Shown: piece after piece, positions 14,691 to 39,546 of the stretch | How positions within the stretch are numbered: position 1 is the first letter of the stretch | Layout of the letters: each line of letters starts with the position of its first letter | NCBI RefSeq assembly: GCF_030384885.1 | Contig: NZ_CP128613.1 | Origin: Escherichia coli | GTDB taxonomy: Bacteria; Pseudomonadota; Gammaproteobacteria; Enterobacterales; Enterobacteriaceae | DNA length: 64,000 nucleotides | Strand: one strand, 5' to 3' | Translations under genes and position numbers: made by a program | The notes under the pieces: generated by a model | What the model was told of the DNA's origin: nothing | What the model saw: only the letters and a program-made list of their open reading frames with translations | The model's database searches: none

Positions 14691-16769
14691 TTAAACCAAT
14701 GCCGATTTATCAATCCCCAGTCGTTTCATCCGTGATAGCAGTGTGGTGCGTTTTAGTCCCAGACGTTGCGCCGCGCCTTTCGGCCCGGCAACCACGCCGT
14801 TAGTCTCTTTTAATACACGCACAATTAGCTGATATTCATCTTCGCCCTCCTGAGCGACGACCGTTGCAGTCGGCGGCGTTTTAGGTTCCGGTAAAGCAAT
14901 ATCAGGCAATGACAGCTGCAGCACGTTGCCACGTGTCAGCAATACCGCGCGCTCAATGACGTTTTCCAGCTCGCGTACGTTACCTGGCCACTCCATATTG
15001 CTCAACGCGCGCAACGTTTCGGCAGGAATGCTGTCGATATTACGCCCCAGACGGCGGGCAATTTTAAAAGTAAAGGCTTTCGCCAGCAGCGGAATATCTT
15101 CCGGACGCTCGCGTAGTGGCGGCAGGTGGATCGGGAATACGTTCAGACGGTAATAGAGATCGCTACGGAACTCGCGGTCGGCAACCATTTTTTTCAGATC
15201 GCGGTTAGTCGCGGCAATTAAACGCACGTCCGTCTGTATAATTTTATTACTGCCGAGACGTTCAAACTCCTGTTCCTGTAATACACGCAGCAACTTCGGT
15301 TGTAACTCCAGCGGCATATCACCCACTTCATCGAGGAACAGGGAGCTTTTATCCGCCAGTTCAAAACGACCGATACGCTGGGCGCTGGCTCCGGTAAACG
15401 CACCACGCTCATGACCAAACAGATCGCTTTCTAACAATCCGGCAGGCATCGCCGCGCAGTTCATTTTTACCATGCGGCGATTATTACGCCCACTGAGATT
15501 ATGGATCGCGCGGGCAATCAGCTCTTTACCGGTGCCAGTTTCACCGAGGATCAGAACTGTACTGTCACTTTGTGCCACCATTTCAACTTGTTTAAGCACG
15601 CTGTACATGGCTTCACTGCGACCAATAATCTCTCCAAATTCACTATCAACATTGTTGAGCTGCTCGGTCAGGGCGAGATTTTCATCAACCAGTCGTTCTT
15701 TCAGACGATGAATTTCCTGATAGGCAAGGGCGTTATCGACAGCGATTGCCACACGTTCGGCAATCTGGCGCAGTAAATTCAGATTGGTCGTGGTAAACAC
15801 TTTCTCTTCGCATTGCGCCAGTTTCAGCACGCCCAGCATGGTGTCGCCAGACATCAGCGGTAACAGGCACAAGGTTTGAATCTGGTTGCCCCAGGTGTCG
15901 AACAACATGCGTTCGTAGGGGGCTAAATTATCTCGCTCGTGGAGATTAATCAGCAGCATCTCTTTGCTTTTAAACACGCGTTCGGTGAGGGTTCCAGCTT
16001 CATCGACTTCGCTCTGTTCGTGAGCGGGATGCTGTTTATCAAGATAGTGAGTGGAGTAGATGTTGAGTTTGTTTTTACGGTGGCTGCGTAAGACGATGCT
16101 TATATCGTCAATGTCGAAATAGTAATGGATTTCTTTGGCGACTTCGCTGACCAGTTCGTCCATATCCAGGCGAGAAAGCACCGCGTTGGTGATGGCAACC
16201 AGGATGCGGAAGTTATCGCGTTCCCGGCATAACAACTCATAGTCGACATTATTGACGACGCGGCTCTGGATTTGTTCGGTGACGACAGAAATGATCTGCG
16301 TAAAAGTTTGCAGGCGATTGAACTCTTTTTCACTCCACGGGCGATCGTCATAACGAATAAATTCACAGCCACCAAAAATATGCCCTTCCGCCGCCAGTGG
16401 CATCAGGCAATAGTGACCAAATTTGGGGTATAGCCCACCAGCGGCCAGCTGCGGCCAGGTTTCACAAAATTCTTCGTAACTGCAATGCAGTGTATCAGGG
16501 CGCGACAAAATGCTGCGCACCGGACCGTGTGCCAGAACAGTTTCGTCTTCATAATTTATGGGGGTGTCTTTTTCACGCGACGCGTAATAAGACGCACGTT
16601 GAGTCTGCGCTTGCCACAACACAATAGCTGCATTGTCGGCGAGCGCAGAACGCTTTACCAATTGCGAAAGAGCCTCACACAGCGAGGCCAGATCGGGCTG
16701 CTGCAATAGTGTCCGAGTGATGTCGAACAACCCTTGTTGTCCGAGATCACTCATCGGTGTATATGACAT
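14691..16769 (-). CDS. fhlA: Formate hydrogenlyase transcriptional activator FhlA (sigma54-dependent), 692 aa
   Basis: GAF domains plus sigma54-interaction AAA+ domain ([14 protein letters not shown]); start at internal ATG (MSYTPMSDLGQ). Confidence 0.9.
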   Translation of the reverse strand: MSYTPMSDLGQQGLFDITRTLLQQPDLASLCEALSQLVKRSALADNAAIVLWQAQTQRASYYASREKDTPINYEDETVLAHGPVRSILSRPDTLHCSYEEFCETWPQLAAGGLYPKFGHYCLMPLAAEGHIFGGCEFIRYDDRPWSEKEFNRLQTFTQIISVVTEQIQSRVVNNVDYELLCRERDNFRILVAITNAVLSRLDMDELVSEVAKEIHYYFDIDDISIVLRSHRKNKLNIYSTHYLDKQHPAHEQSEVDEAGTLTERVFKSKEMLLINLHERDNLAPYERMLFDTWGNQIQTLCLLPLMSGDTMLGVLKLAQCEEKVFTTTNLNLLRQIAERVAIAVDNALAYQEIHRLKERLVDENLALTEQLNNVDSEFGEIIGRSEAMYSVLKQVEMVAQSDSTVLILGETGTGKELIARAIHNLSGRNNRRMVKMNCAAMPAGLLESDLFGHERGAFTGASAQRIGRFELADKSSLFLDEVGDMPLELQPKLLRVLQEQEFERLGSNKIIQTDVRLIAATNRDLKKMVADREFRSDLYYRLNVFPIHLPPLRERPEDIPLLAKAFTFKIARRLGRNIDSIPAETLRALSNMEWPGNVRELENVIERAVLLTRGNVLQLSLPDIALPEPKTPPTATVVAQEGEDEYQLIVRVLKETNGVVAGPKGAAQRLGLKRTTLLSRMKRLGIDKSALV

Positions 16770-20109: not shown

Positions 20110-20460
20110 TCACTCCTGGTCTATTTCTATCCGCCGAATCTGTAAACCGTCGTCTGCCACAATTTGTAGCATGTCGCCATGACACTGTGGACAGCGCCGG
20201 ACGCGCTGGGTTAATAGCGTCACATATTGTTGGCATGTTTCGCACCAGCATTCGGCCTCTTGTTCTTCGAGGTGCAGTTTACAACCTTCCGCTACGCTGC
20301 CGCGGCAAACCAGATCAAAACAAAAGGCAAGAGAGCTGGTTTCGACACAAGAAAATGCGCCAATTTTGAGCCAGACCCCAGTTACGCGTTTTGCACCGTG
20401 TTTTGCGGCCTGCTGTTCGATCAATTCCAGTGCCCGTTGGCAGAGGGTTATTTCGTGCAT
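20110..20460 (-). CDS. hypA: Hydrogenase nickel-insertion protein HypA, 116 aa
   Basis: Begins MHEITLCQ; CxxC ... CxxC zinc motifs. Confidence 0.9.
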   Translation of the reverse strand: MHEITLCQRALELIEQQAAKHGAKRVTGVWLKIGAFSCVETSSLAFCFDLVCRGSVAEGCKLHLEEQEAECWCETCQQYVTLLTQRVRRCPQCHGDMLQIVADDGLQIRRIEIDQE

Positions 20461-20489
20461 ATCGCCTCCCATTAACTATTGCCAGCTAT

Positions 20490-20507
20490 AAGCAATAATT
20501 GTGCCAG
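20490..20507 (-). promoter_or_regulatory. Sigma54 (-24/-12) promoter of the hyp operon
   Basis: Minus-strand CTGGCACAATTATTGC, GG-N10-GC spacing. Confidence 0.65.
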
Positions 20508-20532
20508 TGTTGATTATCCCTAAAGTGAATAA

Positions 20533-20562
20533 TGTCGATGATGTCGAAATGACACGTCGACA
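20533..20562. promoter_or_regulatory. Candidate FhlA upstream activating sequence between hyp and hyc
   Basis: TGTCGATGATGTCGAAATGACACGTCGACA, repeated TGTCG/CGACA half sites; FhlA binding inferred. Confidence 0.45.
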
Positions 20563-20618
20563 CGGCGACGAAATTCACCAGAATCATAAAAATCTCTTTT
20601 ATAACAATAAATTAAAAG

Positions 20619-20636
20619 TTGGCACAAAAAATGCTT
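20619..20636 (+). promoter_or_regulatory. Sigma54 (-24/-12) promoter of the hyc operon
   Basis: TTGGCACAAAAAATGCTT, GG-N10-GC spacing. Confidence 0.65.
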
Positions 20637-20671
20637 AAAGCTGGCATCTCTGTTAAACGGGTAACCTGACA

Positions 20672-21133
20672 ATGACTATTTGGGAAATAAGCGAGAAAGC
20701 CGATTACATCGCACAGCGGCATCGTCGCCTACAGGACCAGTGGCATCTCTACTGCAATTCGCTGGTTCAGGGGATCACGTTATCGAAAGCGCGCCTGCAT
20801 CACGCCATGAGCTGTGCGCCAGACAAAGAACTCTGTTTCGTCCTTTTTGAACATTTTCGCATTTACGTCACCCTGGCGGATGGCTTTAACAGCCACACCA
20901 TCGAGTATTACGTCGAAACGAAAGAGGGTGAAGAAAAACAGCGGATTGCGCAGGCACAATTGAGCATTGACGGAATGATAGATGGCAAGGTCAACATCCG
21001 CGATCGCGAACAGGTACTGGAACACTATCTCGAAAAAATCGCTGGCGTTTACGACAGCTTATACACCGCCATTGAAAACAATGTACCGGTGAATTTAAGC
21101 CAACTGGTAAAGGGACAAAGCCCGGCGGCATGA
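20672..21133 (+). CDS. hycA: Formate hydrogenlyase regulatory protein HycA, 153 aa
   Basis: First gene of hyc operon; length match. Confidence 0.9.
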   Translation: MTIWEISEKADYIAQRHRRLQDQWHLYCNSLVQGITLSKARLHHAMSCAPDKELCFVLFEHFRIYVTLADGFNSHTIEYYVETKEGEEKQRIAQAQLSIDGMIDGKVNIRDREQVLEHYLEKIAGVYDSLYTAIENNVPVNLSQLVKGQSPAA

Positions 21134-21257
21134 GCTGAGGCTTTGCCCGTTTTGCAGGCGTTACGCCTGTTTGGGGATGGGCGTGTCGATGAGTGTCGAA
21201 AATAACATTTCATCGGCATGTTTTCGTCAAAAATGACAATCACCTGAGGAATGCCTG

Positions 21258-21869: not shown

Positions 21870-23692
21870 GCGCAATTTCCCTGATCAATAGCGGCGTGGC
21901 GTGGTTTGTTGCCGCCGCTGTTCTGGCATTTCTCTTTTCTTTTCAAAAGGCGTTAAGCGGCTGGATTGCCGGAATTGGCGGCGCGGTGGGTAGCCTGTAT
22001 ACGGCAGCCGCAGGCTTCACTGTGCTGACTGGCGCGGTTGGCGTGAGCGGCGCGTTGTCGCTGGTAAGCTACAATGTGCAAATCTCTCCGCTTAATGCGA
22101 TTTGGCTGATTACCCTCGGCCTGTGCGGTCTGTTTGTCAGCCTTTACAACATTGACTGGCATCGCCATGCGCAGGTGAAATGCAACGGTTTGCAAATCAA
22201 TATGTTGATGGCTGCTGCCGTCTGTGCCGTCATTGCCAGCAATCTGGGCATGTTCGTAGTAATGGCAGAAATCATGGCCCTGTGTGCGGTGTTCCTCACC
22301 AGCAACAGCAAAGAGGGCAAACTGTGGTTTGCGCTGGGGCGTCTTGGCACTTTGCTGCTGGCGATTGCTTGCTGGCTGCTGTGGCAACGTTACGGCACGC
22401 TGGATCTGCGCCTGCTGGATATGCGCATGCAACAGCTGCCGCTTGGTTCCGATATCTGGCTGCTCGGTGTGATTGGTTTTGGCCTGCTGGCCGGGATTAT
22501 CCCGCTGCACGGCTGGGTGCCACAGGCTCATGCTAACGCCTCTGCGCCAGCTGCCGCGCTGTTTTCCACGGTGGTGATGAAAATTGGCCTGCTGGGTATT
22601 TTAACCCTGTCTCTGCTGGGCGGTAATGCGCCGCTGTGGTGGGGAATTGCACTTCTGGTACTCGGCATGATCACCGCGTTCGTCGGCGGTCTGTATGCGC
22701 TGATGGAGCACAACATTCAGCGTTTGCTGGCTTACCACACTCTGGAAAATATCGGCATCATCCTGCTGGGGCTGGGCGCTGGCGTAACGGGTATCGCGCT
22801 TGAACAACCGGCGCTGATTGCCCTTGGCCTGGTCGGTGGTCTGTACCATCTGCTTAACCATAGCCTGTTCAAGAGCGTACTGTTCCTCGGGGCTGGGAGC
22901 GTCTGGTTCCGTACCGGTCATCGCGATATCGAAAAACTCGGCGGTATTGGCAAAAAAATGCCGGTTATCTCCATCGCCATGTTGGTCGGTCTGATGGCAA
23001 TGGCTGCGCTGCCACCGCTGAACGGTTTTGCCGGGGAATGGGTTATCTATCAATCCTTCTTCAAACTGAGCAATAGTGGCGCGTTTGTTGCTCGTCTTCT
23101 CGGGCCGCTGCTCGCCGTGGGGCTGGCAATTACCGGTGCGCTGGCAGTGATGTGTATGGCGAAAGTTTATGGCGTTACTTTCCTTGGCGCGCCGCGTACC
23201 AAAGAAGCCGAAAACGCCACCTGTGCGCCGCTCCTGATGAGCGTAAGCGTAGTGGCACTGGCGATTTGCTGCGTGATTGGCGGTGTTGCTGCGCCGTGGC
23301 TGCTGCCGATGTTGTCTGCTGCCGTACCTCTGCCGCTGGAGCCTGCTAATACAACCGTTTCTCAACCAATGATCACGTTGCTGCTGATTGCCTGCCCGCT
23401 TCTGCCATTCATCATTATGGCGATTTGCAAAGGCGACCGTCTGCCGTCGCGTTCCCGCGGCGCTGCCTGGGTATGTGGCTACGACCATGAAAAATCAATG
23501 GTGATTACCGCTCACGGTTTTGCCATGCCGGTGAAACAGGCATTTGCGCCAGTGCTGAAACTGCGCAAATGGCTGAATCCGGTGTCGCTGGTACCAGGCT
23601 GGCAGTGCGAGGGGAGTGCGTTGCTGTTCCGCCGGATGGCGCTGGTTGAACTGGCGGTACTGGTGGTGATTATTGTTTCACGAGGAGCCTGA
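21866..23692 (+). CDS. hycC: Formate hydrogenlyase subunit 3, membrane antiporter-like HycC, 608 aa
   Basis: Polytopic membrane protein; operon position. Confidence 0.9.
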   Translation: MSAISLINSGVAWFVAAAVLAFLFSFQKALSGWIAGIGGAVGSLYTAAAGFTVLTGAVGVSGALSLVSYNVQISPLNAIWLITLGLCGLFVSLYNIDWHRHAQVKCNGLQINMLMAAAVCAVIASNLGMFVVMAEIMALCAVFLTSNSKEGKLWFALGRLGTLLLAIACWLLWQRYGTLDLRLLDMRMQQLPLGSDIWLLGVIGFGLLAGIIPLHGWVPQAHANASAPAAALFSTVVMKIGLLGILTLSLLGGNAPLWWGIALLVLGMITAFVGGLYALMEHNIQRLLAYHTLENIGIILLGLGAGVTGIALEQPALIALGLVGGLYHLLNHSLFKSVLFLGAGSVWFRTGHRDIEKLGGIGKKMPVISIAMLVGLMAMAALPPLNGFAGEWVIYQSFFKLSNSGAFVARLLGPLLAVGLAITGALAVMCMAKVYGVTFLGAPRTKEAENATCAPLLMSVSVVALAICCVIGGVAAPWLLPMLSAAVPLPLEPANTTVSQPMITLLLIACPLLPFIIMAICKGDRLPSRSRGAAWVCGYDHEKSMVITAHGFAMPVKQAFAPVLKLRKWLNPVSLVPGWQCEGSALLFRRMALVELAVLVVIIVSRGA

Positions 23693-33704: not shown

Positions 33705-33717
33705 GCATTGTCATCAC

Positions 33718-33745
33718 ATGTCATCGTCACTAGTGTCGATGACAT
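33718..33745. promoter_or_regulatory. Dyad ATGTCATCG-N10-CGATGACAT, candidate FhlA UAS upstream of hydN
   Basis: Perfect 9-bp inverted arms read directly; FhlA binding inferred from operon context. Confidence 0.4.
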
Positions 33746-33780
33746 CGTTTATTCTGCATTGCAGAATTTAATTTCTTTAA

Positions 33781-33818
33781 ATAACAATCAATTAAAAGTT
33801 GGCATGATTTGTGAATGT
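33781..33818 (+). promoter_or_regulatory. Putative sigma54-type promoter region of hydN-hypF
   Basis: ATAACAATCAATTAAAAGTTGGCA matches the hycA promoter -24 region at 23 of 24 positions; the -12 GC is not at canonical spacing. Confidence 0.4.
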
Positions 33819-39527: not shown

Positions 39528-39546
39528 TTGCAGATTGCGTGCCAGT
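39528..39546 (-). promoter_or_regulatory. Sigma54 (-24/-12) promoter of norVW
   Basis: Minus-strand CTGGCACGCAATCTGCAA. Confidence 0.7.

Follow-up and report, generated by a model that had tools for sequence, protein, structure and literature searches.

The segment at 20490-20636 of the window (the whole stretch of DNA analysed here, 64,000 nucleotides) is the hypA/hycA intergenic region of the E. coli chromosome. According to the RefSeq annotation of an identical record (L001, whose coordinates become window coordinates by adding 299), hypA lies on the minus strand and is followed by hypBCDE and fhlA, while hycA lies on the plus strand and is followed by hycB-I. The hydN-hypF and norR/norVW genes are also annotated inside the window. 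The features on which the analysis is built are as follows.

14691-16769, minus strand: fhlA, annotated by RefSeq as the last gene of the hyp operon, encoding the formate-responsive enhancer-binding protein.
20110-20460, minus strand: hypA coding sequence by annotation, with its ATG at 20460 (Pfam HypA, 7.6e-31).
20491-20506, minus strand: hyp sigma-54 promoter TGGCACAATTATTGCT, with the -24 GG at 20505-20504 and the -12 GC at 20493-20492.
20527-20562, no strand assigned: UAS1, a predicted FhlA-type enhancer block GAATAATGTCGATGATGTCGAAATGACACGTCGACA, with a TGTCG...CGACA core at 20533-20562.
20566-20575, no strand assigned: CGACGAAATT, a possible additional FhlA half-site and a weak one, in which ACGAAATT matches 7/8 positions of ACGAAATG.
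20598-20618, plus strand: A/T-rich tract with an IHF-like box, a conserved island abutting the hyc -24 element.
20620-20635, plus strand: hyc sigma-54 promoter TGGCACAAAAAATGCT, with the -24 GG at 20621-20622 and the -12 GC at 20633-20634.
20672-21133, plus strand: hycA, the first gene of the hyc operon by annotation, encoding the FhlA anti-activator (Pfam HycA_repressor, 1.2e-89), with its ATG at 20672.
21183-21238, no strand assigned: UAS2, GTGTCGATGAGTGTCGAAAATAACA-(17 nt)-CGTCAAAAATGACA, a second predicted FhlA-type block, in the hycA-hycB spacer.

The product of fhlA carries Sigma54_activat (1.1e-72), GAF (1.9e-18) and HTH_8 domains in Pfam, and thus the cognate activator of the candidate upstream activating sequence is encoded in the same genome. 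The RefSeq record (L001 14392-16470) spells this gene as 'flhA' and its product as 'FlhA', which is a typo; flhA is a flagellar gene. Inside hypA (20110-20460), a search for the FNR box TTGAT-N4-ATCAA with up to two mismatches found none; the literature describes an FNR-dependent promoter internal to hyp.

Of 5,426 complete E. coli genomes, all except one contain a match to the 601 bases surrounding the intergenic region. They are 100% identical to those of strain 2013C-4282 and 95-99% identical to those of nearly all other E. coli genomes. Identity of at least 99% was reached in only 5 of the 5,426 genomes, the remainder falling at 95-99%, which places the source strain in a divergent Escherichia lineage. 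The locus is the same as hyc/hyp of K-12, from which the window strain differs by strain-level substitutions only. Within the intergenic spacer these substitutions are found at 20489, 20523-20525, 20578-20586 and 20600, all in non-conserved stretches, and both promoters, UAS1 and the hycA leader are base-identical in the window and in K-12. Since the promoters and UAS1 are identical, the published K-12 experiments are directly applicable to this strain. For K-12, the work of Lutz (1990), Schlensog (1994), Hopper (1994) and Leonhartsberger (2000) is said to have described divergent NtrA promoters of hyc and hyp, an FhlA upstream activating sequence and an IHF site.

The sequence-only reading from which we started had placed back-to-back -24/-12 elements at 20490-20507 on the minus strand and at 20619-20636 on the plus strand, and these coordinates proved exact: the reverse complement of 20490-20507 reads CTGGCACAATTATTGCTT, and 20619-20636 reads TTGGCACAAAAAATGCTT. 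In both elements the GG and GC doublets are exactly 10 bp apart within TGGCAC-N5-TTGCW, to which the hyp element has no mismatch and the hyc element one (A for T at the first T of TTGC). When the transcription start is set 11 nt past the 16-mer, a rule that reproduces the distances of 20 and 26 given by Bonocora et al., the hyp start is predicted at about 20480, 20 nt ahead of the hypA ATG, and the hyc start at about 20646, 26 nt ahead of the hycA ATG.

An RpoN count matrix derived from 186 promoters (PMC7658346 Table 2) was run over the two strands of the window, some 128,000 positions in all. Both calls were upheld by this scoring, the hyp promoter ranking first with 19.0 bits and the hyc promoter third with 15.3 bits. 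Among the known promoters in the window, that of norV (TGGCACGCAATCTGCA, 39529-39544, minus strand) is the second-best RpoN match with 16.4 bits, and that of hydN (TGGCATGATTTGTGAA, 33800-33815) scores 10.9 bits. The matrix by itself has limited selectivity: in Markov-simulated 64-kb sequences, matches of at least 15 bits occurred 1.18 times on average, and 14 of 500 sequences held one that reached 19 bits, so that the hyc site taken singly is within the chance range. From the simulated rates we estimate about 5e-4 occurrences per window for a divergent pair whose members both reach 15 bits at a spacing of 60-250 bp, which puts the observed pair outside that range. A consensus search allowing two mismatches revealed no overall enrichment in the window (40 found versus 47 expected).

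These chance rates leave some room for the reading that the motif matches are coincidental and that the segment is an ordinary sigma-70 intergenic region, which would draw on the roughly 1.2 RpoN matches at or above 15 bits that chance yields in 64 kb and on two weak sigma-70-like matches in the spacer. The latter are not above chance, and the sigma-70 and terminator scans of the hypA-hycA spacer yielded nothing above expectation. Against this reading, published sigma-54 occupancy from ChIP-seq and gSELEX falls at exactly these motifs. The ChIP-seq motifs of Bonocora et al. 2015, TTGGCACAAAAAATGCT for hycA (distance 26, OS27) and CTGGCACAATTATTGCT for hypA (distance 20, OS28), are both flagged there as confirmed in EcoCyc and are letter-identical to the promoter sequences in the window. 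A gSELEX peak was located within the hycA/hypA spacer by Shimada et al. 2021. The orthologous pair in Salmonella was bound by sigma-54 in ChIP-chip, with FhlA named as the activator (Samuels et al. 2013), and microarray comparison of the Salmonella wild type with ΔrpoN showed hyc 26-fold and hyp 5.6-fold up, both strains expressing a constitutively active promiscuous activator (Samuels et al. 2013).

The promoters are also conserved across the family. In our comparative set of 80 hycA loci from Enterobacteriaceae, including Escherichia, Salmonella, Citrobacter, Enterobacter, Klebsiella, Kluyvera, Kosakonia, Lelliottia, Raoultella and others, the best plus-strand RpoN match lies 34-37 nt ahead of the hycA ATG in 80/80 loci (13.4-17.3 bits), and a best minus-strand match lies ahead of hypA, likewise in 80/80 (15.1-19.5 bits). 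The presence of both motifs in every locus at fixed distances from the start codons, together with the published occupancy, already refutes the sigma-70 reading, which we regard as hardly credible. Taken together, the matrix scores, ChIP-seq, gSELEX and conservation show that the hyp and hyc -24/-12 elements are genuine sigma-54 promoters, and it is the identity to the ChIP-seq motifs and the 80/80 conservation, not the statistics, that makes this support decisive.

Two further observations concern sigma-54 motifs at this locus. The promoters are mirrored through their start-site regions in a 27-nt inverted repeat with 85% complementarity (20480-20506 and 20620-20646), which reads TGGCAC-N5-wTGCTTAnAGCTGGCA and whose extension past the -12 element is found in Escherichia only. 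Within hycC, an intragenic motif TGGCGCGTTTGTTGCT at 23077-23092 on the plus strand scores 15.1 bits with the RpoN matrix and corresponds to the weak published ChIP-seq peak IS31, whose K-12 motif is GTGGCGCGTTTGTTGCC; the last position is T in the window strain and C in K-12, T being the better match.

Between the two promoters, UAS1 contains TGTCG pentamers starting at 20533 and 20542, TGACA starting at 20550 and CGACA at 20558-20562. With an FhlA matrix built from 13 characterised sites (PMC7658346 Table 2), the top match of the whole window is 20533-20546, TGTCGATGATGTCG, with 16.0 bits. Among orthologous UAS1 spacers, 53 of 81 hold an FhlA-matrix match of at least 10 bits, versus 3.1% of controls, which were segments taken from these loci. 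The block is conserved, as the promoters are, in all 80 orthologous loci. When 81 unique intergenic sequences were aligned, they gave the UAS1 consensus TGwCGATGwCG..TGwCGAAATGACAyGTCGAC and revealed five conserved islands, namely UAS1, the hypA Shine-Dalgarno sequence (GGAGG at 20465-20469), the two promoters and the A/T tract with the IHF-like box. The half-site TCGAAATG at 20544-20551 agrees with 7/8 positions of the published ACGAAATG, which is exact in most genera. The possible extra half-site at 20566-20575 falls within a segment of one extra helical turn that is present only in Escherichia and Enterobacter-type architectures and gapped in other genera.

Pentamer counts are less telling. 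A count of three strict TGTCG/CGACA pentamers within 45 bp is not significant across the window, as 89 of 200 simulations attain it, and a search for TGTCG-N7-CGACA returned 44 matches, UAS1 being among them with one mismatch. Under the relaxed TGWCR/YGWCA pattern the densest cluster of the window lies upstream of hydN (33705-33749, 8 in 45 bp) and UAS1 comes second, with a count within chance. An idealised FhlA consensus, CATTTCGTACGAAATG, is attributed to Leonhartsberger et al. 2000 in PMC4987338. UAS1 has 7 mismatches to the full consensus, fdhF 7 and hydN 8, all like background, so the consensus does not discriminate; as natural FhlA regions score no better than background, it is unusable as a test.

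The position of UAS1 was then compared with other FhlA-controlled promoters. Relative to the predicted starts, the pentamer cluster spans -113 to -84 at hyc, -117 to -82 at hydN and -116 to -80 at fdhF. Like hyc, fdhF and hydN-hypF thus combine a -24/-12 promoter with TGWCR/YGWCA pentamers at about -117 to -80, and hydN has the ATAACAATnAATTAAAAGTTGGCA box and the TGTCGATGAC module in common with the hyc/hyp region, the same IHF-like box preceding its promoter as well. Because UAS1 lies at the same distance from the hyc start as the blocks of fdhF and hydN from theirs, it is predicted to be a canonical FhlA enhancer for hyc. They differ in layout, fdhF and hydN-hypF being unidirectional with a single upstream block, whereas hyc/hyp has two promoters and two blocks.

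The statistically ordinary pentamer cluster of UAS1 leaves room for another regulator acting at the TGTCG/CGACA block, either one of the GlrR/QseF type, with TGTC-N10-GACA, or ModE/NarL at hyc. Indeed, TGTC/GACA half-sites are common to UAS1 and the GlrR enhancer consensus TGTC(N)10GACA (PMC4987338). The spacings in UAS1 are N5 and N13, however, versus N10 for GlrR. [quoted passage not shown] 2013; PMC4987338). We therefore consider another regulator very improbable. Our data support UAS1 as a predicted FhlA-type upstream activating sequence, and the proposal of the block at 20533-20562 as a candidate FhlA site stands by its top matrix match, its conservation and its fdhF/hydN-like position.

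Between UAS1 and the hyc promoter, the A/T-rich tract contains the IHF-like box TAACAATAAATTA at 20602-20614, which has one mismatch to the IHF consensus WATCAANNNNTTR. Among 81 loci the box is exact in 24 and has one mismatch in 34, and in 51 it begins at one and the same place, -18 from the hyc TGGCA. A putative IHF site is thus present between enhancer and promoter on the hyc side; as viewed from hyp, the box lies beyond UAS1. PMC2636881 Table 1 names IHF as an activator for hyc as well as for hyp.

The sequence-only reading had further suggested that formate- and FhlA-dependent activation of both operons proceeds from this one enhancer. UAS1 fits that claim on the hyc side, where it lies about 80-120 bp upstream of the start, but not on the hyp side, where the same block spans -82 to -53. 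It is thus 30-31 bp, about three helical turns, nearer to hyp than the corresponding blocks are to the three canonical FhlA promoters. Furthermore, UAS1 is not the only activator block available, since a UAS1-like second block, UAS2, which the sequence-only reading had missed, is conserved in all genera.

The FhlA matrix matches UAS2 at 21194-21207 (TGTCGAAAATAACA) and at 21225-21238 (CGTCAAAAATGACA), with 12.2 bits each. In 78 unique hycA-hycB spacers of 70-145 bp, GTGTCGA-nnn-GTGTCGAAAATGACA ... TTTCGTCAAAAATGAC is almost invariant, and the left half of UAS2 aligns with UAS1 through a common TGTCGATGA(G)TGTCGAAA(A)TGACA. FhlA-matrix matches of at least 10 bits were found in 62 of 75 UAS2 segments, compared with the same 3.1% among the controls. 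The conservation pattern is that of DNA-site-like blocks shared with UAS1. Compared with K-12, UAS2 differs by one base, a G-to-A change at 21204 in the GACA half-site, giving TGTCGAAAATaACA; K-12 and most genera have GACA at this half-site.

With its end only 19 nt ahead of the hycB GTG start (21258), UAS2 is too close to hycB to serve it as an upstream enhancer. Relative to the hyp start its position is about -703 to -758, and relative to the hyc start +537 to +592; UAS1 is 0.6 kb away. FhlA footprints are reportedly located at two places, the hyp-hyc intergenic region and the hycA-hycB spacer (Schlensog et al. 1994), and the same study from the Böck laboratory is said to have attributed hyp activation to the distal hycA-hycB block. 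A service of UAS2 to hyp fits the non-canonical distance of UAS1 from hyp. It also fits the listing of IHF as an activator of hyp as well as hyc when the only conserved IHF-like box is situated, from the side of hyp, beyond UAS1. Ahead of UAS2, the end of hycA carries two hairpins (21104-21172), GGGACAAAGCC/GGCTTTGCCC followed by GTTTTG and CAGGCG-TTA-CGCCTG followed by TTT; this spacer segment is confined to Escherichia, Salmonella and Citrobacter, and the hairpins might partially terminate transcription between hycA and hycB.

Arm lengths on either side of UAS1 bear on whether hyp also depends on it. With the conserved GACAyGTC core as reference point in 79 loci, the spacing between the hyp -24 element and the core is confined to 42-44 or 53-55 bp, and the spacing between the core and the hyc -24 element to 58-61 or 69-70 bp. 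Three combinations occur, as follows.

Short hyp arm, long hyc arm: 37 loci, in Escherichia, Salmonella, Enterobacter and Lelliottia.
Long hyp arm, short hyc arm: 23 loci, in Klebsiella, Kluyvera, Raoultella and Pseudocitrobacter.
Both arms short: 19 loci, in the Citrobacter freundii group and Kosakonia.

No locus among the 79 has two long arms. At a period of 10.5, the hyp arm gives a mean resultant length R of 0.87 and the hyc arm one of 0.84, values that come from too small and too closely related a set of lineages for a formal test. Steps of about one helical turn fit a face-of-the-helix constraint on both sides of UAS1; they could equally come from gain or loss of TGWCG repeat modules of roughly 10 bp. 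The helical phase kept between hyp and UAS1 argues against UAS1 being irrelevant to hyp. To our knowledge, this quantised pattern of arm lengths has no published description.

UAS1 might be a single bidirectional enhancer shared by hyc and hyp, with UAS2 dispensable or otherwise used. No other FhlA-type block lies between the promoters, and UAS1 is quasi-palindromic, its pentamers lying at -113/-104/-96/-88 from hyc and -82/-74/-66/-57 from hyp. Since the offset of 30-31 bp is about three helical turns, its rotational register would be equal toward both promoters, and the restriction of the hyp arm to 42-44 or 53-55 bp in 79 loci points the same way. However, the ~10 bp steps may reflect gain or loss of repeat modules instead of phase selection, and UAS2 is a second FhlA-type block that is at least equally conserved. 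The centre of UAS1 lies near -65 from hyp with no bend site between, whereas the blocks of fdhF, hydN and hyc centre at about -100, and the IHF-like box stands on the far side of UAS1 from hyp, although IHF is reported as a hyp activator. In addition, the primary literature reportedly assigns hyp to the distal site. We regard a single shared enhancer as unlikely. That one enhancer serves both operons cannot be taken as established, and the claim is probably incomplete: its hyc half stands, UAS1 being canonical there, and its hyp half is weakened by the existence of UAS2 and by the non-canonical position of UAS1.

A bolder proposal combines the elements into a phase-locked three-element device, in which UAS1 would sit in the same register to both promoters and serve both, only whole-turn insertions and deletions would be tolerated, and UAS2 would act by looping out hycA. 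We put it forward tentatively, as a possibility short of an even chance.

Other sigma-54 systems offer parallels for the arrangement. Like hyc/hyp, zraP/zraSR (hydHG) has back-to-back sigma-54 promoters flanking activator sites. In E. coli, the zraP/zraSR promoters are reportedly divergent, with central ZraR sites taken to serve both (Leonhartsberger et al. 2001). The zra system differs in its activator and site sequence and has central sites only, whereas hyc/hyp has an additional remote block. In Salmonella, the zraP and hydH motifs are about 150 bp apart (Samuels et al. 2013). In the same window, norR-norVW resembles hyc/hyp in having a sigma-54 promoter and an adjacent gene for a GAF-domain enhancer-binding protein. 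It differs in that only norV is sigma-54-dependent, the sites are GT-N7-AC and the signal is NO, not formate. The norR-norVW enhancer comprises three NorR sites (PMC2831303).

Based on these data, we propose, with a probability of roughly 0.88, that the segment is the long-studied control region of hypABCDE-fhlA and hycABCDEFGHI, in which FhlA acts from UAS1 on hyc and the hyp enhancer is most likely not UAS1 alone. In the proposed mechanism, sigma-54 RNA polymerase would wait as a closed complex on each of the back-to-back promoters, whose occupancy is known from published ChIP-seq. Formate, on whose requirement we follow the literature, would activate FhlA, the product of the gene at the end of the hyp operon; formate binding to FhlA is treated in PMC11291172. 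FhlA would then bind the TGWCG/CGWCA-rich UAS1 about 100 bp upstream of the hyc start, and an IHF-type bend at 20598-20618 would bring the FhlA oligomer to the hyc promoter, which would open upon ATP hydrolysis. The hyp promoter, also FhlA-dependent, would be opened from UAS2, about 0.7 kb upstream, probably by long-range looping, and UAS1 may contribute to its activation. We infer the FhlA contacts at UAS1 and UAS2, and likewise the assignment of UAS2 to hyp, from sequence together with the reported literature.

The divergent hyc/hyp sigma-54 promoters and their FhlA enhancer are already known; they have been textbook knowledge since 1990-2000, and the sites appear in genome-wide sigma-54 maps. 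What is added here beyond the known is the quantised arm lengths and the near-invariance of UAS2, and the stepwise arms and the distal block may be of interest for the engineering of formate-inducible promoters and for enhancer geometry. Since the hyp operon ends with fhlA and the hyc operon begins with hycA, activator and antagonist alike are under the control of this region, which is thereby the node of positive and negative feedback in the synthesis of formate hydrogenlyase.
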